A stretch of 64,000 bases of DNA from an uncultured Verrucomicrobiota bacterium (lineage in GTDB: Bacteria > Verrucomicrobiota > Kiritimatiellia > RZYC01 > CAZAYP01). The position numbers and the translations under genes are program-made. The stretch spans positions 82,725 to 146,724 of the forward strand of contig CAZAYP010000002.1 of the NCBI GenBank assembly GCA_964489425.1, in the 5' to 3' direction. This document shows, in pieces, positions 1,409 to 58,788 of the stretch (positions are counted from its first letter, which is position 1; every line of letters begins with the position of its first letter). A model generated the notes under the pieces. It worked only from the letters and a program-made list of their open reading frames with translations. It ran no database searches and was not told where the DNA came from.

Positions 1409-4400
1409 ATGAAAAAATATATTTCATCGATTTCTGCAAGCGGGTTGCTGCTGTGGCTGGCGCTGGCAGGGGCGGTGCAGGCGGAATCCTACCGCGGCGA
1501 TCTGAACGCCTGGGGCACCAGTTGGATGGCCCAGGACACGGCGTTTGGGAGCCTGTGGAAGGTGACCGTGACCGCGGCCGCCACGACGGCCACCTCCACC
1601 TATAAATTCGATCAGGATGGCGACTGGAACCCGCAGTGGGGCATGCGCACGGGCTACACGACCAATGCCGTGGCCAACAGTTCCATCGGCCGCACGCGGG
1701 CCAGCCTGGATCTCGGCGGGGATCCGGGCAACCACACCAACAGCGTGAGCGCCGGAAAACGCTACACTTTTGTCATGGAAGGGGCCCCGGATTGGTGGGA
1801 CCGGCGCTACGTGATCATGGAGACGGATGCGGACCCCATCAACATCCTCAACGTGTTTGATGACAGCGCCAACCGCTGGACCAACAGCGTCACGGTCAAC
1901 ATCCAGCTCAGCGCTAGCAAAAGCGCCCAGGAAACCATCTGGGTGCGGTTCAGCAAGGACAGTTGGGCGTCCAGCCAACTGGCGCCGCTGGCGGCCGGGT
2001 CGGGCACAAACTACGCGGCGACCATCTCCGGCACGCCGGCCGGGACGAACGTGTCCTACTACGTGTTCACCTCCACCATGCCTTCCAACATCCTGCCCAA
2101 CTCCTTTGACCTTTGCACCCTGCGCGGCAAGACGCTGGGCCTCGGCACCAACTATTCCTACAGCACCGCGTTCGGCAACTGCTGGCACTTTCCCGGCAAC
2201 GCCGAGCCCTCGGGCGCGTACATGCGCAATCCCACCAACCCGGCGGCCGACGAGGCCGTGTTCATCTACACCGGCAACTATGTTCCGGACGGCAACCAGA
2301 CTGGCGGCACGCTCTATTACCGCAAATCCGATGTGGCGGCCTGGACCGCGACCAACTTGAGCTACGATTCACTCAGCGGCGACAACAAGTATTGGAAAGC
2401 CGATATCCCGGCGGCGACGTACAGCGCCGGCGACACGGTCCAGTACTACCTGGCCGTCACCTATTCCGACCGCTGCCCAACCTACCTGGGCACGACCAAT
2501 GCGGGCGTGGGGCTGGTCAAGTACGGTTACGCCACCAACGCGCAGCTCCGCCCGTTTTCGTTCACCTACACGGCCCCGGTGGCCGACCTGGGCAACGCCT
2601 GGCACATGCCCGACAACTACGAGCCTGCCGGCGCCTACATGCGCAACCCGCGCACCCCCTACACCAACGACGATGTCTACGTGTATAACGGCAACCAGTT
2701 CCAGGGCGGCGGAAACCCCGGCGACCAGACGGGCGGCACCCTGTATTACCGCTTGCGGCCCGCCGGCGGCTGGCAGTCCACGAACCTGGCGTTTGACCTT
2801 GAAACCGGCAACAACAAGTACTGGAAAAGCATGATCCCCAAGGGGACGTTCCGGGCCACCAACGAGGTCGATTACTACCTGAAAATCACTTACAACGATC
2901 ATGACGATACCTATCTTGGCACCACGAATAGCGGGACATCCTGCCAGACGTATTCCCTGGCCGCGGACGCCCAGGCCCACCCGTTCATGTTCGCCTATGG
3001 CGGCGACCCGGGCACCGAGGCGGGGTTCATGTGGCACGCCAGCAACCGCGTCAGCCTCGGCAGCGGCAACGTTCAGGTCTGGGTCAAAATTGGCTACGCC
3101 CAGGGCAGTGGCTCCAACCGCTGGGTGGACAACGCCGTGATCTATTACACCACCAACGGCACGGACCCGGCCATCACCGGCAAGGGCGTGCCTGGCAATG
3201 CCAGCACCTTCGTCCAGGCCATGACGTTTGACCACATGGAAGAAGACTCGTTCGAGGACGGTGACGCCATGTGGTGGGTGGGCACGGCCACCAACCTGCC
3301 GCAGAGCGACGGCTCGGAAATCCGCTACAAGATCGGGTCATGGAACGGATCGGGCACGGAGCGGTTTGCGGAATACAACAGCGTGGGCGGCACGCCCAGC
3401 GCCATCTTCAACTTCTCGCTGTTCGTGGCCGGCGCCGCCAACCTGATGGTCAACGGCAAGAACGCGGACTACACCGCCACCAAGCTGTTCATCGATGAAA
3501 TCGCCGGCGAGACCCAGGCGGTTGTGGTCGTGTACACGCCCGGGGTCGGTGGCGCCTCCAACGTGCAGGTGTACTGCAACCTCAACCGGCGCGACCAGGT
3601 CAATGTGGACTACACCAACCAATACATCCGTGCCGACGGCTATGCCGACGGCATCAAGCCGCCCGATGGCAACCTGATCACGCCTGCGGATACCGGGGCA
3701 TACTACACGGCTTTTGCCATGACAGCGGGCGGGGGCGGCACGTACTACTGGACCGGGCGCGTCACCCGCTGCGGTGCCTACCGCATCACCGCCCGCTACC
3801 AGAAGGACGCGCCGGCGGCCACCAACTGGACCTGGTACTCCACGGGCAGCATCCGTGACCACGCCGTGGTGGTGTCGCCCCGCAAAATCCATGAGCTGAC
3901 CATGTACGAGCTGAACACGCTCACCATCAAGGCGGCGGGGGATTCCGAAGGCGGCCGCAGCACGTTCAAGGACCTGCTGGCCGGCGACCAGGACAGCTTT
4001 ACCAACTTCAACCTGGGTTACCTGAACAAGATCCAGGCCAACTGCCTGTGGTTCCAGCCCATCCATCCCAATGCCGAGACCACGCGCGGCAACCCCGGCG
4101 CCTGCGTGCCCGGCAGCCCGTATGCCACGCGCGATTACTTCGCGGTCTCGAAATGGTACGGCGACGCCACCACCGAGGACGACGCGCTCGCGGAGTTCAC
4201 CAACTTCGTGGCCGCCTGCGACGCCTATACCGGCACCGTCGGCACCATCAACATCATGCTCGACGGCGTGTTCAACCACACCGCGTGGGACGCCGAGTTC
4301 GGCAACGCCGGCGTGACCTTCGGGTTCGCCACCAACAAGGACGACAAGATCGGCTGGTTCAAGCCCTCCTGGTATTCGCTCTGGACCGATTACGGCGAGC

Positions 4401-6361
4401 CGGGCACGTACTTCCACACCGTGTACAGCAACGACTTTGCCACCGCGCCGGACCGCGGCGACTTCGGCAAGTGGGACGACGTGACCGAGTTGTACTACGG
4501 CAAGTATAGCGCCCTCGTGCGCCACAACCCGGACAACAACGGCGACTACCTGAACGAGGGCGACGTGTATGACTTCACCGGCATGGGCACCAACACCATG
4601 GACCTGTGGAAATATATCGGCTACTACCCCGAATACTGGCTCCGGCAGACCGGCCACTGCGGCACCAACAGCAGCCCGGTGGACGGCGCATATGCCGCGC
4701 GCCTAGCCCGCGACAACCGCGGCCTGGACGGGTTGCGTTGCGACTTCGGCCAGGGCCTGCCGCCCCAGGCCTGGGAGTACATCATCAATCGCACGCGGAG
4801 CATCAAGTGGAACTTTGTGTTCATGGCCGAGACGCTTGATGGCGGCGTGCCGGGCTATCGATCCAACCGCCACTTTGACGTGCTCAACGAGAACCTCGTG
4901 TTCAAGTTCACCCAGGAGCACATCAGCAACTCGTGGGAGTTCCGGCAGGCGCTGGAAGACCGGCGCACCTCGTACAGCGGCGGCGCCATCCTGCTCAACC
5001 TGACCGGCCACGACGAGGTCATGCCGTACAACGACTGCTGGATGACCGCGTCGCGCTACGGCGCCGTGTCCATGGTGGATGGCATCCCCATGATTTTCTA
5101 CGGCCAGGAACAGGGCATCCAGGCCTACGCGGGCAACGAGGGCTCCATCGCCAACACCGGGTTCAAGAAGTTCGAGCTGAACTTCGGCAAGTACATCCCG
5201 GACTTCAAACAGTGGAACCAGCTCACCGTCTGGCAGCAAACGCCGCCCAATAGCGTTGGGATGGCGCAGTGGTACGGCCGGGTCAACTGGGCGCGGCTCA
5301 ACAGCGCCGCGTTGCAGAGCCCCAACCGCTACTTCTTGAGTCGCACGGCCGGCGGCGATAACGCGCGCATCCTGGCCGTGGCCAAGTATGAGAGCTACGG
5401 CGCGTCACCCACAAACAGCGACGTGGTGCTGGCGTTTGCCCTGATTCTGAACGACACGCATGACGACGCCAGCGACACCTACGACCTCCAGGGCGCCTGG
5501 GCTTCGCTGGGCATGAGCACGTCCAAGTATTACAACGCGCGCAACCTGGCCGCCAGCGACGCATCCGCGTACCTGTGGCCTTCCAACAGGCTCGGCGCGG
5601 AGATCTATAACAACGGCATCTGGGTCAACCTCACCTCGGACAAGAACGGGCACACCATCACCGACGACGGATCCCTGGTCCAGTACCTCAAGGTGGAGGA
5701 GTTTGATCCGCCCTCGGAATACAAGATTGTGGCCACGGCCGGCGCTAACGGCACCATCACGCCGTCGGGCGACGTGCTGGTGCCCGCCGGCGGCAGCACC
5801 AGTTTCGTGGTCCGGGCGGCCACGTTCTACCGCATCGCCGCCGTGGCGACCAACGGCAACGCGATCAGCGCGGTGTTCAACAATACGTCCACCAACTACA
5901 CGTTTACGTGGACCAGCGTGAACGCCACCGGTGTCATCGCCGCCACCTTCACGGACCAACTGGCCTCCAGCAATACGCCCGTAGCCTGGCTGGCCGGCTA
6001 TTATCCCGGCGCCACGAACTACGATCAGTTGGCGCTGAGCGATACGGACAACGACTTGCTCGCGGCCTGGCAGGAGCGGATTGCCGGCACCGTGCCGACC
6101 AACCGCCTCTCCATGCTCGAGGCCACCGTGAACTACAACGCTGCGCCCGGCGTGCCCAACGTGGTGCGCTGGACCGGCTCGGACCAGGCGGGCCGCATGT
6201 ACCGCGTGTACTGGGGCGGTGACCTGTTCCGCGGCGTGACCAACCTGGCGCAGGACAACATTACCAACGCCTACCCGGCCTTGAATGTCTACACCGATGC
6301 GGTCCGCGGCGCCACGGCCACGGGCATCTTCTACCGGATCGGCGTGCGGATTGCGAATTAG
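1409..6361 (+). CDS. Giant secreted GH13-family alpha-amylase-like glycoside hydrolase with N-terminal triplicated beta-modules and a C-terminal FN3-like module
   Basis: ATG at 1409 preceded by GGAGGAG; signal peptide MKKYISSISASGLLLWLALAGAVQA. GH13 catalytic regions DGVFNHTAWD, GLRCDFGQGLP, FMAETLDG, LTGHDEV. Three ~140-aa repeats starting WHFPGN / WHMPDN / MWHASN (about 2170-3350). The ORF-track start at 1220 is an unsupported upstream extension. Confidence 0.9.
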   Translation: MKKYISSISASGLLLWLALAGAVQAESYRGDLNAWGTSWMAQDTAFGSLWKVTVTAAATTATSTYKFDQDGDWNPQWGMRTGYTTNAVANSSIGRTRASLDLGGDPGNHTNSVSAGKRYTFVMEGAPDWWDRRYVIMETDADPINILNVFDDSANRWTNSVTVNIQLSASKSAQETIWVRFSKDSWASSQLAPLAAGSGTNYAATISGTPAGTNVSYYVFTSTMPSNILPNSFDLCTLRGKTLGLGTNYSYSTAFGNCWHFPGNAEPSGAYMRNPTNPAADEAVFIYTGNYVPDGNQTGGTLYYRKSDVAAWTATNLSYDSLSGDNKYWKADIPAATYSAGDTVQYYLAVTYSDRCPTYLGTTNAGVGLVKYGYATNAQLRPFSFTYTAPVADLGNAWHMPDNYEPAGAYMRNPRTPYTNDDVYVYNGNQFQGGGNPGDQTGGTLYYRLRPAGGWQSTNLAFDLETGNNKYWKSMIPKGTFRATNEVDYYLKITYNDHDDTYLGTTNSGTSCQTYSLAADAQAHPFMFAYGGDPGTEAGFMWHASNRVSLGSGNVQVWVKIGYAQGSGSNRWVDNAVIYYTTNGTDPAITGKGVPGNASTFVQAMTFDHMEEDSFEDGDAMWWVGTATNLPQSDGSEIRYKIGSWNGSGTERFAEYNSVGGTPSAIFNFSLFVAGAANLMVNGKNADYTATKLFIDEIAGETQAVVVVYTPGVGGASNVQVYCNLNRRDQVNVDYTNQYIRADGYADGIKPPDGNLITPADTGAYYTAFAMTAGGGGTYYWTGRVTRCGAYRITARYQKDAPAATNWTWYSTGSIRDHAVVVSPRKIHELTMYELNTLTIKAAGDSEGGRSTFKDLLAGDQDSFTNFNLGYLNKIQANCLWFQPIHPNAETTRGNPGACVPGSPYATRDYFAVSKWYGDATTEDDALAEFTNFVAACDAYTGTVGTINIMLDGVFNHTAWDAEFGNAGVTFGFATNKDDKIGWFKPSWYSLWTDYGEPGTYFHTVYSNDFATAPDRGDFGKWDDVTELYYGKYSALVRHNPDNNGDYLNEGDVYDFTGMGTNTMDLWKYIGYYPEYWLRQTGHCGTNSSPVDGAYAARLARDNRGLDGLRCDFGQGLPPQAWEYIINRTRSIKWNFVFMAETLDGGVPGYRSNRHFDVLNENLVFKFTQEHISNSWEFRQALEDRRTSYSGGAILLNLTGHDEVMPYNDCWMTASRYGAVSMVDGIPMIFYGQEQGIQAYAGNEGSIANTGFKKFELNFGKYIPDFKQWNQLTVWQQTPPNSVGMAQWYGRVNWARLNSAALQSPNRYFLSRTAGGDNARILAVAKYESYGASPTNSDVVLAFALILNDTHDDASDTYDLQGAWASLGMSTSKYYNARNLAASDASAYLWPSNRLGAEIYNNGIWVNLTSDKNGHTITDDGSLVQYLKVEEFDPPSEYKIVATAGANGTITPSGDVLVPAGGSTSFVVRAATFYRIAAVATNGNAISAVFNNTSTNYTFTWTSVNATGVIAATFTDQLASSNTPVAWLAGYYPGATNYDQLALSDTDNDLLAAWQERIAGTVPTNRLSMLEATVNYNAAPGVPNVVRWTGSDQAGRMYRVYWGGDLFRGVTNLAQDNITNAYPALNVYTDAVRGATATGIFYRIGVRIAN

Positions 6362-7858: not shown

Positions 7859-10800
7859 CTATTCCGTTTGAATCCGGTAAAATCCGCGCGGGGCGGCCGG
7901 ATCCATGACGTGGAAGATGTTCAGCGGCGGAGTGGCGGGCAGGTCGCCGGCCAGGGGCGCGAAGGCTTGTCGCAGGTCGGGCGTGTGCAGGATCCGGTAC
8001 CATTCGTTGCTGCGGCTGAGCCAGCGGATGACCAATGTTCCATCCGCCCAGACGCATTGGGCAACGTACAGCGCCTGCGCCTGGGCGGGGTAGGGGCCGT
8101 ACGGTTCCGAGGTTCCATCCGTGAGCAGGGCAACCACCCGGTATTGATACACGGTGTTCACGCCGGCATCCATGTCCTCCACGCAGTAGCTTGCGCCAAC
8201 GCCCCCCTGGGACAAGCCATCGGCGGGGATCGGGCCGGCGGAGACCGCGATCCATACCCCGCGATCCGGATCCCAACGATAGAGGTAGAACCCCGCCAGG
8301 TCCTGTTCCGCGCCGGTTTGCCAGCACACTTGGATGCGGCCGTTTTCCTCGTGCAGCGCGAACCCGTGGATGGCCATGGCCGTGGGCTGTGAGTAATAGG
8401 CGAACGCGTTCGTTTTTATCGTGATGCCAAAGCTGGTCGAACAGACCCGCACATCGCCCGTGGTCGCGCCCGGCGCCATGCCGGTCCGGACCACCACCTG
8501 CGTGGAGTCCTGGCTGACGATCTCCGTTGCGGCCACGTTGCACAAGATCACGTCCGTGATGTCCCCGCCGTTGCCCAAGTCCTGGCCGCCGATCACCACC
8601 GTGATGCCGCCCGTGATGCTGACCAGGTCCGGCTCGACGGTGGCAATGGAGCCCGTGGGATTGTACGTGTACGCCGCGTTCAGCCGGCACTCGCCGAGAC
8701 TGGCGGACTGGATGCGGATGTCCACCGCGCCGGTGACCGTGGCCGCGGGCATGATCCACTGCACCCACGCCGCGGCCTGCGTGACCGCCACCACGGCCTG
8801 CGCCCCAATCCAGAGGTTGGTGATGTCGTTGCCGTTGCCCAGCGCGCCGTTGTTGACCGTGACCTGGTTGCCGCCTGCGTACGGGCCGTTCTGGTCGCTG
8901 ATCTCGTACACCTTGACGAGGTTGGTCACGCCGGGCGCGGCGTTCCAGTTGGTGTCGCCGGACTGCTGCGCGGCCACGCGCACGTCGCCGGCGCCGGTGA
9001 ACGAGAGGTTGGTATAGTCGCTGATCATGCCCGGACCGGCCGTCACCTCGAAGCTGACCGGCAACCCGGCATCCGTCGTGGCCGCCAGACCGAGCTCGGT
9101 GCTGGACAAGGGCGGATCGGGCTGGGTAAACCCCGAGATCGCCTGCTGGGCCCGGGCCACGTCGAGGAGGCCGGCGGCATGGCCGGAGTGGTTGGCATTG
9201 GCGACCGTGCCGGTTACCGCGTACGACCCGGCGTTGACCGGCGCTCCAGCGCCTCCGTCGTAGGTAAAGCTCACGCTCAGCCCCGCGGGCATGGTCGTGG
9301 CGCTGGCGGCGCGAGCGGTGCCATCGTACACCTGCTGCAACGAGCCCAGGTACACCGCCGCCGCGGCCGGGCTGATCACCAGCTGGTCCACGGTCTGGCC
9401 GCTGTAGTTGGCTTCCACCACCAGCCCGGTCACCGTGTACGACCCGGCGTTGGTCGGCGCGGAGGCCTGGCCGTTATAGGTCAGCGCCACGGTCAGCCCG
9501 ACCGGGTCGGTGACGGCGCTGGCGTTCCTGGCTGTGCCGTCGTAGGTCTGCAGCAGGTCGCCCAGGCTCACTGTCGCGGCTTGCCGGCTTACCTGCAGTG
9601 CCGCCACAGCCTGGCCGGCGTAGTTCACCTCGGTCACCATGGCCGTGACGGCATAGGTCCCAGCATTGGTCGGCGGCCATCCGAGCCCGTTGTAAGTCAC
9701 CACCACGGTCAGGCCGGTCGGTGTGGTGCCCACGGTGACGGCGCGGGCGGTGCCGTCATACGCCTGGTCCAACCCGCTCAAGGTCACTGCGGCCACGGCT
9801 TGCGTAATCTGCAACCCGATGGTCACGTCCCATGGGCTGTTGGTGGCCTCGGCCGACCATACGGTGACCGTGCCCGCGTAACTGCCGGCGTCCAACCCGG
9901 CCACGCTTACTGTTCCGGATATGGTCATGCCGGCGTTCCCCGCCAGCCATCCCGCCGCCGGCGCCACGCCCAGCCACGCGCCCGCGCCCTGGCGCGCGAT
10001 GTTGGTGAACTGCAGCGCCGCCCCTCCCGCATTGGTCAGCACGAAGGCGGCCGCCGGCGGGTCGCTGCCATAGGCTGTCACGTAGTCCAGGCGGCCGGTG
10101 CTTGTTCCCAACGCCGCTGGTTCCACACCTTCGCCTTGCACGTTGATGAGGTAGGGTGCGTTGGTGGTCCCGTTGTGTACGATGTCCACCAGCGCCGTGT
10201 ACGTTCCCAGACCCGGCGGCCGGAACACGAGCGCGAAGTTCGTGGCTGCGCCCGGCGGCAGCTCGTCCTGGAAGCAAAGGAACTCGAATGCGCCGGCGCC
10301 GGTTCCGTTGGTCAAGGCGCCGCTCACCACCAGGTTGGTGGTGCCGTTGTTGCCGAACGTGAACCAGTTGGTTCGCGCCCGGGCTACGCCCACCCCGCCG
10401 AAGTCCGTGCCGGAAGCTGCGGCGGCCGGCGCGGCATTGGCCAGCAGCACGCCGTTGGTCCCGCGGATCCAGATCACCACGTTGTGCACGAAAAACCGGT
10501 TGGTCTTGGCCGGCGCCGCCTCCCGGTTGGCGTCCCCGGCTTGGCTCGCCACCACGCTCACAAACCCCGTGCTGCTGAAGGTCAGGTTGGTCAGGTCGGC
10601 GATGGCGCCCGGCCCCTCCACCACCGCAAAATCCACCGGCAGGCCCGACGCGGCGCTGGCGCCCAGCGCCACCAGGTTGGTCAGGTACTGGTCCGGGATG
10701 GCTGGGAACGCGATGGCCTGCGCCGCCGGGGTGACCACCATGTTGGTGACGCTTTCGCCGGCGTACAGCGCATCGACCACTGTGCCGGTCACGGCGTAGG

Positions 10801-13800
10801 TGCCGGCGTTGGTCGGGGCCCAGGCCAGGCTGTCGTAGGTGAAGCTGACAGACAACCCCGCGGGCATGGTGGTGGCGATCGCACTGCGCGCCGTGCCGTC
10901 GTAGACTTGGTTTAATCCGCCGCTGAAATATACGGTCGCGTCCGCCTTGGTCACGCTAATGGTGTTGGTAATATCCGGCGCGGCGTCCCAGTTGGCGTTG
11001 CCGGGCTGGCTGGCTTTCAGGCTCACCGTGCCCGCGCCGGTGAAGAGAAGGTTGGTGCCGGCGCTGAGGCTGGCGGGGCCGGCGTGGACCGCGAAACTCA
11101 CGGCCAGGCCCGATCCGGCGCTGGCGGCCAGGCCCAGGCGGTTGGTGGCCACCTGGGCGCCGGGAGAGGGGAACGTGATGGTCTGTGCGGCTTGCGCCAC
11201 GGCCAGGGTCCCGGTCATTGCTCCGGCGTACACGGCGTCCACCACGGTGCCCGTGACCGCGTAATTGCCGGCGCCCACGGGCGCTGAACCGCCGCCGTTG
11301 TAGGTGATGCTCACGGTCAGGCCGGCGGGCATGGTGGTGGCGGTGACGTTGCGGGCCGTCCCATCGTATGTCTGCGCCAGGCCCTGCAAGAAAACCTCGG
11401 CCGCGGCCTTGGCCACCACCAGGATGCCGGTGCTGCCGCCCGCGTACAGGTCTTCGATGATGGTCGCGGCCACCGCGTAGGAACCCGGGTTGGTTGGCGG
11501 CCATTCCAGGTCATCGTAGGTCAGGCTGACGGTCAACCCGGCGGGCATGGTGGTGGCGGTGACGGCGCGGGCGGTGCCGTCGTACACTTGGTTCAAATCC
11601 TCGAAATAAACCGCTGCGTCCGCCTTGGTCACGTTGAACGTGTTGGTGACCTCAGGCGCGGTTTCCCAGTTGCCGTCGCCAGCCTGGCCTGCGACCAAGG
11701 TCACCATGCCTGTGCCGGTAAACGTCAGGTTGGTGGCATCGGCCAGGAACCCCGGGCCCGCAGTCACGGAAAACGCCACTTCGAGGCCGCTGGTTGCGCT
11801 GGCGGCCAATCCCAGTTGGTTGGTGGCAAGTTGCGCGCCGGGGGAGGGGAAATCGATCGCCTGCGGCGCTTTGGCCACGGCCAACGTGCCGTTGGTCCAT
11901 CCTTCGTACAAGGCTTCGACCACCAGGCCGGTGACGGCATACACCCCGGCATTGGTTGGCGGCCATTCCAGGTCATCGTAGGTAAGGCTGACGGTCAACC
12001 CGGCGGGCATGGTGGTGGCGGTCGCGGCGCGAGCGGCGCCGTTGTACATCTGGGCCAGGTTCGCCAGGTAGACCGCGGCGCGGGCGCGGGAAACCGTGAA
12101 CGTGTGGCAGACATCCGCGGCTGGGTTCCAGTTGGAGGTGCCGGCCTGGCTGGCCGCCACTTCGACCTGGCCCGCGCCGGAAAACGAGAGGTTGGTTCCA
12201 TCCGTGATGGAAGCCGGCCCGTCATCCACCACGAAGCTCACTGCCAGGCCGGACGATGCCTGCGCCGCCAAGCGCAAGAGGTTGGTCGCGGATTGCGGGC
12301 CAGGGATGGAAAAGTTGGTGATGGCTTGATCCGCCCGGGCAAGGTCCAGGATGCCTAAGGCTTTGCCCGAATAATTGGCATCGGCAACCGTGCCGGTGAC
12401 CGCGTAGGCGCCGGCGTTGACCGGTGCGCTGGCGCTGCCATTGTAAGTGAAACTCACGGTCAAGCCGGCGGGCATGGTGGTGGCGGTCGCGGCGCGGGCG
12501 GTGCCGTCGTACACCTGCTGCAACGACTCCAGGTACACCGCCGCATCGGCCGGGCTGATGACCAGCGTGTCCACGGCCACCCCGCTGTAGTTGACCTCCA
12601 CCACCGTCCCGGTCACAACGTACGACCCGGCATTGGTTGGCGTGGCCGCGTGCCCGTTGTAGGTCAGCGCCACGGTCAGCCCGGCGGGGTCGGTGACGGC
12701 GCTGGCGCTCTTGGCTGAGCCGTCGTAGGTCTGCAGCAGATCTCCCAGGTTAACCTCCGCCGTCTGCTGGCGTACCAGGAGCGTATCCACGGCCTGGCCG
12801 GCGTAGTTCACCTCGGTCACCATCGCGGTGACGGCATAGGGTCCGGCATTGGTGGGCGCCCATCCGAGGCCGTTGTAAGTCACCACCACGGTCAGGCCGG
12901 TAGGCGTGGTGCCCACGGTGATGGCGCGGGCGGTGCCGTCGTAGGCCTGGTCCAGCGCGCCCAGCGTCACCGCGGCCACGGCCTGCGTCACCTGCAATCC
13001 CACGGTTATGTCCAGCGGGCTGTTGGTGGCCTCGGCCGACCACACGGTTACCGTGCCTGCGTAGCTGCCGGCGTCCAGGCCTGCCGCGGAAACCTGGCCG
13101 GTCACGGTCGTGGCCGTGTTCCCCGCCAGCCATCCCGCCGCCGGCGCCACGCTCAGCCACGTGCCCGCGCCCTGGCGCACGATGTTGGTGAACTGCAGCG
13201 CCGCTGCGCCCAGGTTGGTCAGCACCAAGGCCGCCGCTGGCGGAGCCACCCCGTAGGCGGTCGCGTAGTCCAGGCGGGCGGTGCTTGTCCCCAACGCCGC
13301 GGGTTCCACGCCTGTGCCCTGCACGTTGATGAGATACGGCACGTTGGTTGTTCCATTATGCGCGATTTCCACCAGCGCCGTGCAGGGCCCAAGCCCTGAC
13401 GGACGGAACGCCATGGCGAAGTTGGCGTAGGTGCCAGCCAACACGTTGTTGGTCAGGCCGACCATCTCGAATGATTCCGCTCCAGTTCCATTGGTGGTGC
13501 TGCCGCTCACCACCAAATTCGTTGTGCCATTGTTGCCCAACCGGAACCAGTTGGTTTGCGTGCGGCCGACGCCCACGGCGCCGAAATCCGTGCCCGCGGC
13601 CAGGGCCGCCGGCGCCTCGTTGACCAGCAAGGCCCCGTTGGTGCCCCGGATCCAGATCACCACGTTGTGCACGAAAAACCGGTTGGTCATGGCCGGCGCC
13701 GCGTCCCAGTTGGCATCCCCGGCCTGGCTCGCCGCCACGCTCACAAACCCGGTGCTGCTGAAGGTCAGGTTGGTCAGGTCGGCGATGGCGCCTGGCCCTT

Positions 13801-16648
13801 CGGTCACCGCAAAGCTTACCGCGAGCCCCGACCCGGCGCCGGCGCCCAGCGCCACCTGGTTGGTCAAGTATTGGTCCGCCACGGCCGGGAACGTAATGGT
13901 CTGCGTCCCCGGGGCCACCACCAGGTTGGTGACGCCTTCGCCGGCGTAGAGCGCCTCGGCCACGGTCCCGGTCACGGTGTAGGTCCCGGCATTGGTCGGC
14001 GGCCAGGCCAGGCTGTCGTAGGAGAGGCTCACGGTCAACCCGGCGGGCATGGTGGTGGCGGTGACCGCGCGGGCGGTGCCGTCATACGACTGGCTCAGTC
14101 CGCTGAAGAATACGGAAGCGCCCGCCTGGGTTACGCTGAAGGTGTTGGTGACGTCCGGCGCGGGTCCCCAGTTGGCGTTGCCGGGCTGGCTGGCTTTGAG
14201 GCTCACCGCGCCCGCGCCGGTGAAGAGGAGGTTGGTGCCAGCGCTGAGGCTGGCGGGGCCGGAAAGGACCGCGAAACTCACGGACAGGCCGCTGGACGCG
14301 CTGGCGGCCAGGCCCAGGCGGTTGGTGGCCACCTGGGCGCCGGGGGCGGGGAACGTGATGGTCTGCGCCGCCTGCGCCACGGCCAGGGTCCCGGTCATTG
14401 CTCCGGCGTACAGGGCGTCCACCACGGTGCCGGTGACCGCGTAATTGCCGGCGCTCACGGGCGCGGATCCGCCGCCGTTGTAAGTGATGCTGACGGTCAG
14501 TCCGGCCGGCATGGTGGTGGCCGTGACCGTGCGGGCGGTGCCGTCGTACGTCTGCGCCAGGCCCTGCAAATACACGCCCGCCGGGGCCCGGGTCACCGTG
14601 ACCAGGTTGGTGACATCGGCCGCGGCCAACCAGTTGCTGTTGCCGGCCTGGCTGGCGCGCAGGATCACGGTCCCGGCGCCGTAAAAGGAAAGATTCGTTG
14701 CGTCGGCCAAACTGCCCGGGCCCCCCAGCACCGCGAAACTGACCGCCAGGCCGGCGGACGACGTGGCCGCCAGCCCCAGCCGGTTGGTGGCCTCCTGGCC
14801 GGGGATGGCCGGGAAACTGATGGTTTGGCCGGCCTTGTTGACCGTGAGGGCAACGGTGATTTTCTGCGGGCTGTTGGTGGCGTCCGGGGCCGTGACCTGG
14901 TTGGTGGCCAGGTAGGTTCCGGCGTTCAAACCGGCCGTAGCAACGCCGGCGGTATGGATGCGCGAGGTCGCGCCTGCGACGACCCCGGTGGGATCCAGGA
15001 TGGACAGCCAGCCGCTGGCGTTGGCCCCGTACGCGATGCGGTTGGAATACCCGAATGCCGCCTGGCCGGCGTTGGTCATCGTTACCAACTGCGCGGCGGG
15101 ATCGGCGGCCAGGTACGTGGCGGTAAACGCCAGGCTGGTCGGGGCCGCACCGATAGCGCCCGCCGTGATGCCCGTGCCACAAAGATTGATCCGGTAGGGC
15201 GAGTTGGTCGTATTGTTGGCGATGACCAGGATGGCGGTATGCACGCCGGGAACCGCCGGGCTGAACACGATCGAAAAGTTGCTGCAGGTGCCGGGCGACA
15301 CCGTATCCGGCAGGCCGTGCACCACGAACCGTGCTGCGCTTGCGCCGTTCGTGGTCCAGGACGACAGGTTGAAACTCACCGCGCAGGTGTTGGTGATGAA
15401 GAGCGTGTTGGTCAGCGCCCGGCCGGCCACGAAAGCGCCGAAATCGGTGCCCACGGCGCTGCCGGCCGCCGCGTCGTTTTCAAGCACGGCATGGTTGACG
15501 CCCAGCACGGCCAGGGCATGATCCGCGGCGATTTCCAGCGGGCGGGCCGCATTGAACAGGTGATTGGACGCCACGTTCTGATAGCCGGCCCATACCCAGT
15601 TGGACGAGCGGGCCAAGCTGGAAATCCGGAGTTCGTCGAGGCCGCCCCGGAAAAAATAGGTGGTATGCTTGCCAAACTGCAGCTCCTGGGTGCTCATGGT
15701 GAAGGTGTACAGGTTGGAATTGATCTGGAGACCGTTGCGGTAGAGCCGCCACATGCCGCCGGCCGGGTTGGCCACGGTCAGATCATAGCGATGCCAGTTG
15801 CCGTTGTTCAGGAAGGGGTCGGTGGGGAACACCTTGCCGTTGGCATAAATGTAATTGCCGGCCGAGGCGTTGTCCTGGATGATGAAGCGATTGACCCCGC
15901 TGCCCAGATCGCTCGAAATCTGGGCGCCTTCCATGTGCCCGGTTTCCGACATCCACCACGATATGGAAAACGCCGTGCGGCCCTGCAGCGGGTTGATGCC
16001 GGCGCCCAATCCCACGTAGGCCGAGGTGCCGTTGAATCCCTGGCCGCCCGCGATCATTCCGGGCGCATTGGTGTTGTTGGAGGCGGCCCCGTGATAGCGG
16101 TTGGAGGTTGAGTCCATGACTGCGGGGGCGGATAAGTGCCACACGCCAAGGTACGCTTGAGACCATGTGGCGCCGCTGGTGCGGCAGGGGGGCGCGGTTT
16201 GTCCGCTTTGGCCCCAGTAAGCCCAGATGTGCGCGTTGGTGTTGGGCACGGACGGGACCTGCACCCAGGCGCAGGAGGCGCCATTGGTGTTCCAGGATTC
16301 GATCTCGTGGTTCAGTTGCAGCACGCCGTTGCTGTTCATGAACAGGAGGTCCGCATTCGTGCCCGAGAGCATCTGGCTGTAATGGAACCCGCCACCCATA
16401 CCGTTGGAGAAAACCACGAGGACCGGAAAATTGGTCAGGTTCTCCGTGCGTTGGTAGCCGGGCAACGCGATTTTCATGCGGTAGTTCCACGCCTCGGCAA
16501 TGCCCGGCACGAACAGGCTGGCGGCCAGGGCCATGGAAATCATCAACGACAGCGAGACCCGGGTACCAAAACACCGGTATGAGCATGACAGAGAGCGCAA
16601 GCACGACGCCATGGTCCGGAGAACGATGACCCACCGTATTTTCATCAC
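7859..16648 (-). CDS. Giant (2929 aa) secreted surface protein: N-terminal LamG/ConA-like region followed by a long array of MBG (YDG) / Ig-like repeats and a C-terminal FN3-like module
   Basis: Continuous ORF. Recurring ...YDGTARAVTATTMPAGLTVS.TY......PTNAGTYAVTGTV... units typical of MBG domains. DELRISSLARSSNWVWAGY motif typical of LamG-like jelly-rolls. A hydrophobic signal (MISMALAASLFVPGIAEA) follows a 35-aa basic extension, so the true start may be at about 16543. Contains a ~3.18-kb internal tandem duplication. Confidence 0.9.
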   Translation of the reverse strand: MMKIRWVIVLRTMASCLRSLSCSYRCFGTRVSLSLMISMALAASLFVPGIAEAWNYRMKIALPGYQRTENLTNFPVLVVFSNGMGGGFHYSQMLSGTNADLLFMNSNGVLQLNHEIESWNTNGASCAWVQVPSVPNTNAHIWAYWGQSGQTAPPCRTSGATWSQAYLGVWHLSAPAVMDSTSNRYHGAASNNTNAPGMIAGGQGFNGTSAYVGLGAGINPLQGRTAFSISWWMSETGHMEGAQISSDLGSGVNRFIIQDNASAGNYIYANGKVFPTDPFLNNGNWHRYDLTVANPAGGMWRLYRNGLQINSNLYTFTMSTQELQFGKHTTYFFRGGLDELRISSLARSSNWVWAGYQNVASNHLFNAARPLEIAADHALAVLGVNHAVLENDAAAGSAVGTDFGAFVAGRALTNTLFITNTCAVSFNLSSWTTNGASAARFVVHGLPDTVSPGTCSNFSIVFSPAVPGVHTAILVIANNTTNSPYRINLCGTGITAGAIGAAPTSLAFTATYLAADPAAQLVTMTNAGQAAFGYSNRIAYGANASGWLSILDPTGVVAGATSRIHTAGVATAGLNAGTYLATNQVTAPDATNSPQKITVALTVNKAGQTISFPAIPGQEATNRLGLAATSSAGLAVSFAVLGGPGSLADATNLSFYGAGTVILRASQAGNSNWLAAADVTNLVTVTRAPAGVYLQGLAQTYDGTARTVTATTMPAGLTVSITYNGGGSAPVSAGNYAVTGTVVDALYAGAMTGTLAVAQAAQTITFPAPGAQVATNRLGLAASASSGLSVSFAVLSGPASLSAGTNLLFTGAGAVSLKASQPGNANWGPAPDVTNTFSVTQAGASVFFSGLSQSYDGTARAVTATTMPAGLTVSLSYDSLAWPPTNAGTYTVTGTVAEALYAGEGVTNLVVAPGTQTITFPAVADQYLTNQVALGAGAGSGLAVSFAVTEGPGAIADLTNLTFSSTGFVSVAASQAGDANWDAAPAMTNRFFVHNVVIWIRGTNGALLVNEAPAALAAGTDFGAVGVGRTQTNWFRLGNNGTTNLVVSGSTTNGTGAESFEMVGLTNNVLAGTYANFAMAFRPSGLGPCTALVEIAHNGTTNVPYLINVQGTGVEPAALGTSTARLDYATAYGVAPPAAALVLTNLGAAALQFTNIVRQGAGTWLSVAPAAGWLAGNTATTVTGQVSAAGLDAGSYAGTVTVWSAEATNSPLDITVGLQVTQAVAAVTLGALDQAYDGTARAITVGTTPTGLTVVVTYNGLGWAPTNAGPYAVTAMVTEVNYAGQAVDTLLVRQQTAEVNLGDLLQTYDGSAKSASAVTDPAGLTVALTYNGHAATPTNAGSYVVTGTVVEVNYSGVAVDTLVISPADAAVYLESLQQVYDGTARAATATTMPAGLTVSFTYNGSASAPVNAGAYAVTGTVADANYSGKALGILDLARADQAITNFSIPGPQSATNLLRLAAQASSGLAVSFVVDDGPASITDGTNLSFSGAGQVEVAASQAGTSNWNPAADVCHTFTVSRARAAVYLANLAQMYNGAARAATATTMPAGLTVSLTYDDLEWPPTNAGVYAVTGLVVEALYEGWTNGTLAVAKAPQAIDFPSPGAQLATNQLGLAASATSGLEVAFSVTAGPGFLADATNLTFTGTGMVTLVAGQAGDGNWETAPEVTNTFNVTKADAAVYFEDLNQVYDGTARAVTATTMPAGLTVSLTYDDLEWPPTNPGSYAVAATIIEDLYAGGSTGILVVAKAAAEVFLQGLAQTYDGTARNVTATTMPAGLTVSITYNGGGSAPVGAGNYAVTGTVVDAVYAGAMTGTLAVAQAAQTITFPSPGAQVATNRLGLAASAGSGLAVSFAVHAGPASLSAGTNLLFTGAGTVSLKASQPGNANWDAAPDITNTISVTKADATVYFSGGLNQVYDGTARSAIATTMPAGLSVSFTYDSLAWAPTNAGTYAVTGTVVDALYAGESVTNMVVTPAAQAIAFPAIPDQYLTNLVALGASAASGLPVDFAVVEGPGAIADLTNLTFSSTGFVSVVASQAGDANREAAPAKTNRFFVHNVVIWIRGTNGVLLANAAPAAAASGTDFGGVGVARARTNWFTFGNNGTTNLVVSGALTNGTGAGAFEFLCFQDELPPGAATNFALVFRPPGLGTYTALVDIVHNGTTNAPYLINVQGEGVEPAALGTSTGRLDYVTAYGSDPPAAAFVLTNAGGAALQFTNIARQGAGAWLGVAPAAGWLAGNAGMTISGTVSVAGLDAGSYAGTVTVWSAEATNSPWDVTIGLQITQAVAAVTLSGLDQAYDGTARAVTVGTTPTGLTVVVTYNGLGWPPTNAGTYAVTAMVTEVNYAGQAVAALQVSRQAATVSLGDLLQTYDGTARNASAVTDPVGLTVALTYNGQASAPTNAGSYTVTGLVVEANYSGQTVDQLVISPAAAAVYLGSLQQVYDGTARAASATTMPAGLSVSFTYDGGAGAPVNAGSYAVTGTVANANHSGHAAGLLDVARAQQAISGFTQPDPPLSSTELGLAATTDAGLPVSFEVTAGPGMISDYTNLSFTGAGDVRVAAQQSGDTNWNAAPGVTNLVKVYEISDQNGPYAGGNQVTVNNGALGNGNDITNLWIGAQAVVAVTQAAAWVQWIMPAATVTGAVDIRIQSASLGECRLNAAYTYNPTGSIATVEPDLVSITGGITVVIGGQDLGNGGDITDVILCNVAATEIVSQDSTQVVVRTGMAPGATTGDVRVCSTSFGITIKTNAFAYYSQPTAMAIHGFALHEENGRIQVCWQTGAEQDLAGFYLYRWDPDRGVWIAVSAGPIPADGLSQGGVGASYCVEDMDAGVNTVYQYRVVALLTDGTSEPYGPYPAQAQALYVAQCVWADGTLVIRWLSRSNEWYRILHTPDLRQAFAPLAGDLPATPPLNIFHVMDPAAPRGFYRIQTE

Positions 16649-16769: not shown

Positions 16770-16851
16770 ATATTTAACGAAGAGTCCCTGAGGGTGTACT
16801 GATATGCAAAATGGGCACAACAGGCAGACTGGCATCCTGACGGTGGAGAAC

Positions 16852-19800
16852 ATGGCCATGACGAGACGCACGATTGTTTTTTTGGCGGTGGTGGCGGCGG
16901 TCATCAGTGCCGCGGGATGGTTTCCCCAGGAAGCCCGCGCCGAGGCTATGCTGCAGTATTTCAACACCAGCTACGCCGAAATTACGGACAAGATGCCGGA
17001 ACTGGCCGAGGCCGGATACTCCTCGATCTGGCTGCCGCCACCCACCAAGGGCAGCGGCGGGTTGTCCGTGGGGTATGACCTGTGGGATCCGCTCGACATC
17101 GGCGGCAAGGACCAGCGCGGCAGCATCCGCACCCGCTACGGCACCGAGGCCGAGTTGATGATCCTGCTCGAAACCGCGCACCGGTTCGGCATTCGCATTT
17201 ACTTCGACAACATCATGAATCACCGTGCGTTCGACATCCCGGGGTACAACGAGGGCACGGACATTTACATCTATCCGGGCATGGTGCCGGAGGATTTCCA
17301 CCTGCGCGTGACCGAGGAAGGCTACTATCGCAAGTGGGACAACTGCCGCGACTGGAACAGCACCTGGCAGGTGCAGAACCTGGGCCTGGCCGACCTGATC
17401 GACATCGCCCACGAAACCCCCAACGACAACTTTGGCGCCAACGAGGGCGATGACCACCCGAAAATCAGCTTCATTCGCCATCCCAACAATCCCGAGTATT
17501 ACCTGGACACGGATTTGCCCATCAGCGTCGGATATGGAATCTACAGTTGGTCCGAGTACACCTTTGCCAACAAGGAACCCTATGACGACGTGGGCTATAC
17601 CAACGCCTCCGCCGTGTTTGTGTCGGCGGCCGTGGGCAACGGCAAGTTCGACTGGGAAGACCTTAACGCCAACGGCCAGCACGATGTGGGCGAGACGGGC
17701 GAGTCGTTCGACGATACCGGCCTGGATCCCTCCCGCTGGACCAGTGCGGATCGCGGCTACGGCGACGGCAAGTACAACATGGGCAACCCCGGCTACGAGG
17801 ATGTGGGCGCCTACCTGATCCGCGCCGGGCGCTGGCTCATGGATTACACCCGGGCGGACGGCCTGCGGCTCGACGCGGTCAAGCATGTGCCGGCCTACTT
17901 CTTCGGCGATTACGGCAGCGATACCAGCGGCAATGGCTACTGCGGCGGCGCCCAGGTCCAGTTCAACGTCAGCCGCGGTTTTTCCGACTGGGACAACCAT
18001 CGCGACACGGTCTTCAACACCGAGGGCAACCGCGACGATGCCATGATGTTCGGCGAGCATCTGGGCGAGCCGCCGGGCTATGGCGACTATCTCGGCCGCG
18101 GCATGCGGCTGGTCGACAACCCCCTGCGCAACGAGTTCAACAGCCGCCTGGGCAGCCCGTGGAACGGCCTGAGCGGTTATGACCAGTCCGGCTACGGCGG
18201 CTTTTCCGCCGCCTGCGGCGTGATGCACGCCCAGAGCCACGACAACGACTACGCCTCGCGCCGCGAGCTGCAGCATGCGTTCTATTTCACCCGCGATGGA
18301 CTCGGCCTGCTCTACACCGACGGCAACCACCATGCCGAAACCCTGGGCGAGAGCGGCGGCGCGTTCCCGCGCCATGCCAACACCGCGTTCCTCGGCCAGT
18401 GGGGCGACCTGCGCATCCCCAACCTGCTCTACATCCACGAGCAATTCGGCCGCGGCTACCAGAAAGGCGTGTGGTCGGACGGCGACTACGTGGCCTACCA
18501 GCGCATGGACTGGCGCCAGGGCGGCAGCACCGACGGCGACAAGGTTGTCATGCTGATCATGATCAACGACGACTATTCCGGCGGCCAGGCGCGCGACATC
18601 CGCGGCAGCATCAGCTTCGGCCATACCCCGTTCGTGGACGATGCCTATCTCTACAACTACTCCACCTACGGCGGCGGCTTTTACACCTATGCCTCGGCGC
18701 TCAACACCGTGATCGTGCCGGCCGGCGGCTACTTCGTGTTTTCGTGGCGCACGCCCGAGGAATCGGCGCTGTGGTCGGGCTTCGGCGGCGACCCGGTCAC
18801 ATTTTATGAGAACGGCCGGCAGGCGGGCACGATGTCCTACACCCGCACGGATGGCCCGGACGGCGACGCCAACTACAATCCTTACGGCGTGGCCGACACC
18901 AACGCGGCGGATTACTCTTACACCTACACCATCCCGCGCGTGACCTCGTCCACCAACCTGCGGATCGTGGCGCGCGCGGACGGGTCGGCGGCCAACGTGC
19001 TGCTGCGCCTGGACGGCGGCGTGGACCTGGACGGCGACGGCCGCGACAACCCGCCGGCCTTGTCCTCGGACGTGTACCTCGGCTTCGAACAACCGAGCTT
19101 CGTGAAGCGCATTTACAAGGAAAAGTTCGCCGCCGCCGACTCGGCCCGCAACCGGATCGGGTCCGCCGGCGCCGAGACCTACCACATGACCATTGGCTCG
19201 ACCGGCTACCGCACCAACTACAGCAACGGTGCCAACGACTGGGACAACAGCGAAACCGCCATGTGGATCTGGCACAACCCGCAATCCACCACTGATCTTG
19301 GCCCCAATCATTTTACCCCCGCGCCGGATAGCGCCGCCGGCACCTCGATCACCGTGTGGGTCAAGTCCGGAAACCAGTTCAACATGAACAACGTGGCCCT
19401 GTACTACACCACCAACGGCACCACCTGGCCCGAGGGCGCCGGCGGCGAGGGGTACGAGCAGACGCGCGTGGTGCCGTTCGCCTGGGACCACAACCAGTAC
19501 GAGTCCACCACCAACGACTGGTGGAAGGCCACCATCCCCGCCTTGCCCGCCGGCACCGTGCTGCGCTACAAGATCGGCTGCTACAAGCAGCAGGGCGAGG
19601 GGACCTGGTCCGTCACCTGGCCGGCCGATGCCGGCGCCGTGGCCACCAAGCTGAACCGCATGGGCGTGTGGGAAGTCACCAACATCAACGCCGCCGCCTT
19701 GACCGTGTACCCGCACAACGATTACGGCAACAAGTACACCGGGCTCCGGGAAGGGTTCCACCTGCTGACCGCGCGCGCGTTCCTCGAGCGCGATGCCCGC

Positions 19801-30389: not shown

Positions 30390-31268
30390 ATGCAATTCAG
30401 ACCATTGCGGACCGGGTTGCTGGCCAGCCTGAGCCTGGCGCTGGCGGGCGCAGCACAACCGGTCCTTGACAGTTTCGACTCCAACGGACGCCTCGCCTGG
30501 TCCAACCAGCAGATTGGCGCGCAGTACGTGGTGCAATGGGCGGCCGCCCTGACCGGGACCTGGCACGGGTCCTGGCAGACTCTGGACGACCTTGCGGCCA
30601 CCAGCGCCAGCCGGTCGGTCGATGTTCCCATGTTCTACCGCGTTGGTCAGTTGCCGACCACAGGCTTGGTCGCGCACTACCCGCTGACCCTGGACGCCGC
30701 GGACATTTCCACCAATGGGCTGAACGGCAGCCTGTACGCCATGACCACCGGGGTCGGCCGGACGTCCCAGGAAGCCGCCCTGTATTTCCTGCAGACCAAT
30801 TCCTGCGTCCAGTGCAGCGCGGATGCGCGCCTGGACCTCGTTCCCGCCATGACCATCAGTTTCTGGTTCCGGACCCTTTCCACCAATCTCCAGAACCTGC
30901 TGGGCCGTTTTGACGGTGATTCAAAGGGTTACAACTTGAGGATCGACAATGGCGCCTTGAACATGTTGCTCAACAATTCCACCCGGGTCACGGCGCCCAA
31001 CGCCATCCTCACGGGCGTCTGGTACCACGTGTCCGCCACCTACGCCGACCCGGTCCACATCCTGTACTTAAATGGCGAACAGCAGGCCCGCGCCGACAAC
31101 TGGCAGGGCTACGTCCCGGCCACCAACGCGCTGGTCCTGGGTCGGAAATACAACAACCTCTTTGGCCTGTTTGACCCAGTCGGCTTCCAGGGCGCCATGA
31201 AAGACCTGCGCCTGTACAACCGCGCGCTGGCGCCGGACGAAATCCGCATGTTGTACGAGTGGCGGTGA
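30390..31268 (+). CDS. Secreted LamG (concanavalin-A-like) domain protein with an N-terminal FN3-like module
   Basis: AAAGGAGGTG ribosome-binding site, then ATG at 30390; signal MQFRPLRTGLLASLSLALAGAA. LamG signature ...MKDLRLYNRALAPDEIRMLYEWR. N-terminal 60 aa (...YVVQWAAAL..W..W..L....FYRVGQL) resemble the terminal module of the giant proteins. Confidence 0.85.
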   Translation: MQFRPLRTGLLASLSLALAGAAQPVLDSFDSNGRLAWSNQQIGAQYVVQWAAALTGTWHGSWQTLDDLAATSASRSVDVPMFYRVGQLPTTGLVAHYPLTLDAADISTNGLNGSLYAMTTGVGRTSQEAALYFLQTNSCVQCSADARLDLVPAMTISFWFRTLSTNLQNLLGRFDGDSKGYNLRIDNGALNMLLNNSTRVTAPNAILTGVWYHVSATYADPVHILYLNGEQQARADNWQGYVPATNALVLGRKYNNLFGLFDPVGFQGAMKDLRLYNRALAPDEIRMLYEWR

Positions 31269-34382: not shown

Positions 34383-34643
34383 TCCACCAGTCCCAAGGTC
34401 ATTAATACTTTCTGTCAACATTACTCAACCGCGCGCGTGTGGCAAGCGGAATTTATGGCTATTTGGCGGCGCCCGCCGCGCGGCCCGCACCCGACTCCGA
34501 AACGCGCTTTCCAGCTTTCCGGACATGGGCCAGTTGTCCCTTGACTTACTTGCCCCCGACGTTCAAAGTCCTGTGAAATTTGACCGTGGCAGGTGCTGCC
34601 CGGATGGCGTGGCGATGGCCGCCAGGCGCCCAACGAGGTGATT

Positions 34644-36368: not shown

Positions 36369-36412
36369 CGCGGCGCGCCCGGTTGGCGCGCCAGAACGGA
36401 GCGGGAGCGAAC

Positions 36413-37486: not shown

Positions 37487-37510
37487 CGATCAAGATCCGA
37501 GGAGCGCAAC

Positions 37511-38482: not shown

Positions 38483-38505
38483 AAACCCGGAAACGAGGTG
38501 CGAAG

Positions 38506-39582: not shown

Positions 39583-39593
39583 AGGGAGCGTAT

Positions 39594-48470: not shown

Positions 48471-48556
48471 AGAAAACGAGGAATGAGGAATGATGAACGA
48501 TGACCATCGGACGATAGGTTTCATAAGCATTGGCAGATTTTCCAGCGAGGCCCAAT

Positions 48557-51762: not shown

Positions 51763-51836
51763 CAACGATGGCCGCCCGTGGCAGTAAAACGCGAACAATG
51801 ACGCGGGCCCGGCCCGCAAGAGGGAGTGCCAGCAAA

Positions 51837-58626: not shown

Positions 58627-58788
58627 GCGGCCACTATAAAACATGACGCCCGGGGCCGCAATGCCGGCGTGTTGGTTCCCGGTCGCGCGTGGTTCAGCGC
58701 TTTCTTTTCCACGATCACTTGGCTATAACTTCTCGTGTCCGGTGGATGGAATCCGGCGACTATAACCGATGAAGATGGGAGCTGAATT

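Follow-up and report, generated by a model that had tools for sequence, protein, structure and literature searches.

An FN3-derived module without strand G at the C-termini of diverse exported proteins of Verrucomicrobiota: a candidate surface-localisation domain

Five copies of a short module and their carriers

The stretch of DNA considered here (the window) comprises 64,000 nucleotides of contig CAZAYP010000002.1, positions 82,725 to 146,724, from an uncultured bacterium of the Verrucomicrobiota (Kiritimatiellia), with a G+C content of 63.7%, and encodes several very large exported proteins. Five of its proteins, called A, B, C, E and G in what follows, carry a short module, which stands at the C-terminus of A, B, C and G, the copy on G being divergent, and directly behind the signal peptide of E. 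The segments lie on the very proteins named in the original prediction, which, from the sequence alone, had proposed a terminal module of about 65 residues on five secreted proteins, ending in the motif (F/Y)(F/Y)R(I/V). The actual size is 66-85 amino acids (aa), the earlier figure being too short because strand A had been left out, and the start first given for module A, 6130, is one base out of frame, its codon beginning at 6131.

Module A (84 aa, LSMLEATV...GIFYRIGVRIAN; 6107-6358, + strand, coordinates including the first strand) is of what is here called the ATPP type and closes a 1650-aa GH13 exoprotein (1409-6361, +), which has a Pfam Alpha-amylase match and a signal-peptide-like N-terminus (1409-1483). 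Directly 5' of the module lies a degenerate TSP3-like turn (LSDTDNDLLAAWQERIAGTVPTNR, 6035-6106, +), which aligns with the D.DGDG..N..E..AGTdPtn segment of other family members and was modelled jointly with module A by AlphaFold2 (AF2), with a predicted local distance difference test score (pLDDT) of 79-92. Carrier A is matched from end to end, at 122 bits, by the 1650-aa database protein P0001, with the module at 1568-1650. Module B (71 aa, ALYVAQCVW...LPATPPLNIF...RGFYRIQTE; 7862-8074, - strand), also of the ATPP type, ends a 2928-aa adhesin-like giant (7859-16645, -) in which Pfam recognises 12 MBG_3 matches as well as Ig-like and TIG domains, and which has a database match in P0002 (2928 aa), at 117.9 bits and with the module at 2858-2928. 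In front of module B stands a second domain of FN3-like appearance (IHGFALHEENGRIQVCWQT...YQYRVVALLTDGTSEPYGPY, 8090-8371, -), and the same two-domain ending is found again in the database proteins P0017 and P0020.

Module C (85 aa, DYLYVNDP...RYFVWYKNNL...SRYYRIEVALPD; 25072-25326, +) is a W-type variant at the end of a giant exoprotein with a signal-peptide-like N-terminus (16852-25329, +; its open reading frame, ORF, opens at 16804), and a TSP3-like turn, read from the sequence (DQDADGDRISNKDEYVAGTSPLDGT, 24997-25071, +), lies 5' of it and aligns with the TSP3 segment of the family. This carrier had been described as a GH13+GH57 protein; the GH13 part stands, and GH57 was not confirmed, the only Pfam match at E <= 1e-3 being Alpha-amylase at residues 60-153. 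Module E (66 aa, 30456-30653, +), another W-type variant, directly follows the signal peptide (30390-30455) of a small 292-aa protein (30390-31268, +) assigned by Pfam to Laminin_G_3 (LamG), and an identical protein is present on public contigs. Finally, protein G (48557-49417, +) is a small exported protein composed of an N-domain, TSP3 repeats (Pfam TSP3_bac) and the module, its gene being the last of a cluster described below. In this protein a TSP3 turn (49076-49150, +) is followed by the divergent module (49151-49372, +), ending RAFFYAY, and by an extra tail (PTNTVKLFRLQIMK, 49373-49414, +), which appears in alignments as an insertion or extra segment. Signal peptides in the window were assessed by eye and with a crude rule, which A, C, E and G pass and protein B fails, a hydrophobic stretch followed by AEA|W coming in B only after a long N-region.

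Common origin, fold and distribution of the family

In the six-frame ORFs of the window, the strict motif [FY][FY]R[IVL] has a frequency of 1.5e-4 per position, and it occurs in the last 14 residues of 3 of the 16 plausible genes, with a loose form in one more. A chance recurrence of so short a motif, without common origin of its bearers, could be argued from the copies themselves, since the five segments show no significant similarity to each other by pairwise phmmer, hidden Markov models (HMMs) built from four copies never recovered the omitted fifth, and a spurious antisense ORF (47004-48452, -) also ends in FYRV by chance. The evidence which decides the matter is external to the window. 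Since MAFFT misaligns C and G when given the five window copies, the profile for an exhaustive search was built from A, B and E alone, and it retrieved 401 proteins at E <= 1e-3 from 1.84e9 cluster representatives, the top three being the window's own proteins. A family HMM was then built independently, from 147 of these database proteins and without those of the window; when it was scanned against the 782 six-frame ORFs of the window, its top five, each at the claimed place, were B (E-value 3.7e-21), A (7e-13), C (0.007), E (0.049) and G (0.54). The two W-type copies are significant with an HMM of their own subfamily (E 3.8e-4, C 8.7e-4, with B at 2.4e-6) and in hhalign comparisons with 65 family members (C, 93.7% probability and E-value 1.9e-7; protein E, 83.9% and 7.7e-6; G, 1.7%). 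With precisely these five atop 782 and hundreds of homologues outside the window, chance recurrence is refuted for A, B, C and E and keeps a negligible probability overall; for G alone, the homology may be limited to the TSP3 turn. Word-index homologue searches were near-empty, because few candidates arise for such short divergent domains: the five-module profile and the last 129 aa of A gave no match, and a profile of 65 modules gave six short fragments.

As regards G, the segment taken together with its TSP3 turn matches family members in register by phmmer at about 1e-7, the match of the module without the turn being not significant. MAFFT aligns G with the family in register over strands A to F, and the AF2 model (pLDDT 68, six strands) has its F strand at RAFFYAY, with pLDDT values below 50 for residues 103-113, which belong to the tail. 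Since the in-register alignments and the model agree, the F strand of G is set at RAFFYAY, so that a divergent module is probably present and the terminal ...KLFRLQIMK is probably an extra low-confidence tail with no equivalent of FYRI; equating its LFRL with FYRI, as had been done, was probably wrong.

The ATPP type, to which A and B belong, has the consensus v.l.W.S..gr.Y.V....dL..gF..la..lpATPP.NvYtD......FYRi.v and is often fused to a preceding TSP3 calcium-binding turn, and the W type (C and E) also forms proline-linked tandem arrays. Conservation of at least 90% is found in the FN3 core (W in strand B, Y in C, L after C and Y in F) and, beyond this core, in the Ser two residues past the Trp, in the P and N of ATPP.N.YTD and in the Arg of FYR. 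When Pfam-A (2025) and NCBIfam (2026) were searched at E <= 10, no model matched any of the five modules, the consensus of the family or any of eight members; the upstream TSP3 turn alone is recognised, by TSP3_bac and, below threshold, by Amuc_1099_fam and MtsD. In the same way, Pfam fn3 (PF00041) gives no match on any module at E <= 10; it matches other, internal domains of the same carriers and never the module, and these canonical fn3 domains are, in turn, undetected by the module HMM. Literature searches yielded no description of the module. The HMM scan that had been set as a test of the original prediction therefore came out in its favour, missing the canonical internal fn3 domains, with the terminal bias reported below.

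Structure prediction had also been proposed, and was carried out with AF2 on the last 116 residues of A and a 49-sequence alignment. The resulting model (pLDDT 84, predicted template modelling score 0.69) has six strands, at residues 37-41, 50-55, 62-69, 77-84, 91-96 and 107-114, and two short helices in the TSP3-like segment; the last strand, FYRIGVRI, ends two residues before the end of the chain. When the 65-module profile was compared with solved structures, homology to established Fn3 domains was found, namely 3mpc_A ('Fn3-like protein', E 5e-5) and 5g56_A (Fn3 of C. thermocellum Xyl5A, E 7.6e-4). Both alignments span strands A to F, with FYRI falling on the F strand YYYVV and no counterpart of strand G. 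In the PDB, Foldseek gave FN3 domains as its top matches, weak ones (E >= 0.057), and the 50 best are mostly FN3 domains, FN3-derived binders and other Ig-like domains. An FN3-type beta-sandwich ending after the F strand, as originally proposed, is thus supported by the model and the profile matches, with Foldseek pointing weakly the same way.

The tail after the R of FYR measures 4-8 residues in 136 of 139 cases, and in tandem arrays a proline-rich linker comes directly after the module. Because of this short tail and of the linker that follows at once, the loss of strand G is a trait of the family, and not the outcome of an FN3 domain chopped by a stop codon. Three canonical FN3 domains share the F-strand motif (YYYRVAATNSDGLS) and continue with an FG loop and strand G. 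The seven-stranded sandwich (A B E / C' C F G) is not found in the module, whose AF2 model has six strands and a chain ending in F; it is, therefore, a truncated FN3 variant rather than a canonical member of the FN3 superfamily, and it very likely belongs to a large, uncurated FN3-derived family with strands A, B, C, C', E and F and no strand G. With FN3 (PF00041; PDB 3MPC, 5G56) it shares the beta-sandwich, the strand order A, B, C, C', E, F, and the conserved W of strand B, Y of C, L after C and (F/Y)Y of F. Unlike FN3, it reaches the chain end or a linker 4-8 residues past FYR, has a loop of its own (ATPP.N.YTD) and an Arg after FY, is often fused to TSP3, is invisible to Pfam fn3 and, as described below, is terminal in most carriers and confined, in its named genome matches, to one phylum. 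In an FN3 topology, one pole of the module would bring together the free C-terminus, the TSP3 turn at the N-terminal entry and two loops, BC and C'-E (ATPP.N).

The D.DGDG..N..E..AGTdP turn found directly 5' of about half of the modules (a full TSP3-like turn in 80 of 153 copies) is a bacterial TSP3 repeat (PF18884), to which the module is often coupled rigidly, and TSP3_bac matches were obtained in G, P0010, P0018 and P0053. The calcium-binding signature D.D.DG...N..E is present in the segment upstream of the module only; conversely, the TSP3 and Amuc_1099-family (NF042425) models span the TSP3 part alone and never the beta-sandwich.

The position of the module in database proteins was counted in the best 150 of the 401 matches, in 141 of which the last copy lies at most 8 residues from the C-terminus; the module is thus at the very C-terminus in about 93% of carriers, a figure which describes the subfamilies nearest to A, B and E, with which the profile was seeded. 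When one genome of each GTDB species was scanned for the motif LPATPP[VML]NV, taken from a five-sequence alignment and sampling the ATPP subtype only, 55 confirmed loci were obtained, and 50 of the 54 ORFs with an in-frame stop end at most 10 residues after the module, so that the terminal preference first noticed on the five proteins extends to genomes outside the window. All 49 loci with a taxon in the record title come from Verrucomicrobiota (31, including the cultured Limisphaera sp. VF-2), Kiritimatiellia (11) or Victivallales (7). As known so far, the family is lineage-restricted, its named genome matches all belonging to Verrucomicrobiota in the GTDB sense (Verrucomicrobiae, Kiritimatiellia, Lentisphaeria).

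Other placements also occur. Two or four copies are found in 25 proteins among the best 150 of 401 (E <= 0.01, three-sequence profile), and up to five per protein in the exhaustive search table; the module stands N-terminally, after the signal peptide, in window protein E and in the Limisphaera locus L037, and an internal cassette of TSP3 turn and module is present in P0089, P0130, P0069, L032 and L022. The carriers are very diverse extracytoplasmic proteins, with Peptidase_C25 (with its propeptide), GH20, GH13, LamG, PKD, BACON, FGE-sulfatase, LVIVD, MBG and TIG domains, and the crude signal-peptide rule was passed by 15 of 26 complete carriers as against 30 of 189 background ORFs (Fisher p 1e-5). 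One of them, the metagenomic protein P0014 (1527 aa), joins a gingipain-family Peptidase_C25 and a Propeptide_C25 to the TSP3 turn and module at its C-terminus.

Neighbouring genes and other features of the window

Protein G belongs to a gene cluster, M-N-O-F-G (34641-49417, with M at 34641-36365), parts of which recur in the loci L044, L058, L059, L060 and L061. M is an unknown exported protein of 575-610 aa, N and O are fibre-like proteins with sub-threshold Bdello_MAT_N matches, and F is a 3011-aa LamG giant. L044 and L059 each encode a small protein with two or three modules, of a type named here GIPEP, followed by an M-like gene; M and its homologue in L044 match at 2e-57 in BLASTP, and a fibre-like gene comes after the M-like gene in L044. 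F-like giants come after the M-like genes of L058 and L061, the two being separated by a fibre-like gene in the latter. The GIPEP proteins (P0008, P0010, P0018, P0019, L044:96-1337 and L059:983-2599) are small and exported, a conserved N-domain, GIPEP(D/G)L..YG.V..., being followed by TSP3 turns and 2-3 modules; with the NCBIfam model Amuc_1099_fam ('pilus-like system protein') they reach 44 bits, the cut-off being 50, over the TSP3 part only. Small proteins made up mostly of modules are, then, genetically linked to surface-fibre genes in several genomes, an arrangement compatible with a scaffold or adaptor role.

Two further C-termini resemble the module. In L061, an unrelated ORF 5' of the M-like gene (L061:3-1586, +) ends in ...GRFEAELERRGPQRYYRVRAVR, a W-type module-like C-terminus which had not been seeded by the search, and in the window a partial InlB-B-repeat/CARDB protein (61808-64000, -) has an FN3-looking C-terminal stretch of 90 aa (..VVLRWTNP...ACYYTIWVNNGFYFVPPPN) which the module HMMs miss.

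The remaining genes of note include a 1442-aa RHS-repeat protein (51705-56033, +) with 9 RHS_repeat matches and a weak DUF6531, which adjoins prfC and has the look of a polymorphic toxin. At 56083-60441 are encoded a GH31 protein with an inserted PA14 and an esterase carrying CBM20 at its N-terminus and a GyrI-like domain at its C-terminus, which, together with the two GH13 giants, suggests an alpha-glucan or starch utilisation neighbourhood. Antisense ORFs of up to 1331 aa overlap the giant genes (16774-20769, 39558-42764 and 21661-23619, all -) and are probably artefacts of the high G+C content.

Proposed function and competing explanations

The module probably holds or sorts its carriers at the cell surface. 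The specific proposal, that of a retained docking and surface-localisation domain, is plausible and tentative, and we give it a probability of roughly 0.35-0.4. According to this proposal, carriers would be exported via Sec and the module would be kept; by binding non-covalently to a conserved partner in the envelope, or to further modules of its own kind, it would hold enzymes, adhesins and fibre-associated proteins at the surface. Contact might be made through the edge that strand F leaves open, together with the conserved pole next to it, which comprises the BC and ATPP.N loops, the TSP3 turn and the free C-terminus. The module would work, therefore, in the manner of dockerin or SLH domains rather than in that of a cleaved export signal. 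Retention is favoured over cleavage because copies are also found N-terminally, internally and in arrays, placements which argue against an obligatorily C-terminal cleaved signal, and because the upstream segment is structured, with no cleavable linker. Docking would also be favoured by the small proteins composed of an N-domain and 1-3 modules, whose genes share a conserved cluster with those of fibre-like proteins and LamG giants.

The likeness to dockerin and SLH lies in a small, mostly terminal module shared by many unrelated exoenzymes, in an adjoining calcium-binding motif and in occasional internal, duplicate or N-terminal placement, and the multi-copy proteins could be scaffolds. Nevertheless, the folds are unrelated, no partner equivalent to cohesin or to the secondary cell-wall polymer is known, and the tandem arrays are made of the same module and not of a complementary one.

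A precedent within the phylum may be seen in the sulfatase Amuc0953 of Akkermansia muciniphila, which has a type I signal peptide and is bound to the cell surface by an unknown route, as concluded from a transposon mutant, whole-cell assays and a medium without activity; its authors proposed a C-terminal domain or system like that of type IX secretion systems (T9SS) for this enzyme (PMC13524802, 2026). A bolder version of surface attachment, in which the module would be the address tag of a display system specific to Verrucomicrobiota, the 'comparable system' postulated for Amuc0953, is quite unlikely in our estimation. In such a system the F edge would be completed in trans by a strand of an outer-membrane receptor or by another module, through beta-augmentation or a pilus-like donor-strand complementation, Sec-exported enzymes and adhesins would be locked onto the surface, and the tandem-module proteins (GIPEP proteins and W-type arrays) would act as scaffolds.

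Several considerations weigh against a retained docking role. No conserved neighbour gene was found as a possible receptor or sortase, and no partner protein of the module is known. The open F edge and the conserved pole are derived from FN3 topology and not from inspection of the model, FN3-like domains are often mere spacers, and the terminal statistics reflect a profile seeded with A, B and E. Moreover, a strong C-terminal bias, many paralogues and diverse cargo are the classic signature of a cleaved sorting signal.

This last explanation, which we consider unlikely, holds that the module is comparable to the domain borne C-terminally by T9SS cargo (CTD; Por_Secre_tail, TIGR04183/PF18962), so that the beta-sandwich at the C-terminus would be recognised by a Verrucomicrobiota-specific machinery of the outer membrane, which would carry the cargo across this membrane, the module then being removed or swapped for a lipid or glycan anchor. 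Both are C-terminal beta-sandwiches of about 70-85 aa on diverse Sec-exported proteins, with C25 peptidases among the cargo and several copies per genome region. The extreme C-terminal position with its tight tail of 4-8 residues, the numerous paralogues with unrelated cargo and the lineage restriction all fit, and the route proposed for Amuc0953 lends itself to this explanation as well. Porphyromonas gingipains bear the T9SS CTD at the position where P0014 has its TSP3 turn and module, and it is because of this gingipain-family carrier and of the sorting-signal hallmarks that the cleaved-signal model stays alive. Nevertheless, PF18962, TIGR04183 and TIGR04131 match neither the five modules nor the consensus nor the eight family members at E <= 10, and no CTD family of Pfam-A or NCBIfam does so at this threshold; no T9SS CTD is named among the 50 top PDB matches of Foldseek, and the module differs from that domain in being six-stranded and FN3-derived. 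Copies that are tandem, internal or placed after a signal peptide would defeat a strictly C-terminal signal, and the TSP3 turn upstream, structured and modelled together with the domain, does not look like a flexible cleavable linker. Furthermore, no T9SS machinery genes (PorK/L/M/N, Sov, PorU/V) are visible within the 64-kb window, and T9SS is not known in this lineage.

The module could also be a plain structural domain, a lineage-specific FN3-like spacer or cap which spread as a mobile cassette of TSP3 turn and FN3 domain and has no specific partner, its terminal bias reflecting how the cassette would be acquired. The homology to ordinary bacterial Fn3-like linker domains is clear, internal and tandem copies occur as in other Ig-like repeats, and the W, Y, L and Y typical of an FN3 core are among the most conserved residues. 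A mere spacer function, however, would not explain why about 93% of the carriers have the module as their final domain, why non-core motifs (P and N of the ATPP.N loop, R of FYR) are kept at a conservation of at least 90%, or why strand G was lost uniformly throughout the family, and the canonical fn3 domains of the same proteins are internal; we regard this explanation as unlikely.

A ligand-binding role, like that of a carbohydrate-binding module or adhesin directed to an external polysaccharide or surface and not to the cell's own envelope, is very unlikely. Several carriers are glycoside hydrolases or adhesin-like, the window is an alpha-glucan-degrading neighbourhood (GH13, GH31, CBM20) and tandem copies would add avidity; nevertheless, the cargo, with its proteases, FGE-sulfatase-domain, LamG and fibre-cluster proteins, is too mixed for one substrate, the family profile matched no carbohydrate-binding module among solved structures, and no carbohydrate-binding Pfam family lies above threshold on the module.

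Known signal types can be dismissed more shortly. Like PEP-CTERM, LPXTG and GlyGly-CTERM, the module is C-terminal, lineage-restricted and present in many paralogues; unlike them, it is a folded domain without hydrophobic helix or basic tail, the proteins ending 4-8 residues after FYR, in or just past a beta-strand and not in a tripartite sorting signal, and a PEP-CTERM-like signal is ruled out by the lack of a hydrophobic helix. Type I secretion is ruled out since, unlike RTX substrates, which have no signal peptide and GGxGxD repeats ahead of a C-terminal signal that stays uncleaved, the carriers have signal-peptide-like N-termini and their calcium motif is TSP3; membership of the T9SS CTD families is rejected for want of a model match.

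These results touch on the question of how Verrucomicrobiota, Kiritimatiellia and Lentisphaeria, groups to which belong Akkermansia, a degrader of gut mucin, and major degraders of marine polysaccharides, put large enzymes and adhesins on their surface. A family HMM would allow the surface and secreted proteins of the clade to be marked in a testable way and would offer, through phylogenetic profiling, a handle on the machinery or receptor involved, and the module itself would be a candidate tag for surface display. Even if it were a mere structural cap, it would still be a well-defined new Pfam-type family annotating the ends of hundreds of 'hypothetical' giants. In short, a known fold is met here in a new and uncurated variant, which, because of its distribution and position, may be considered a good candidate for the missing surface-localisation signal of the Verrucomicrobiota.

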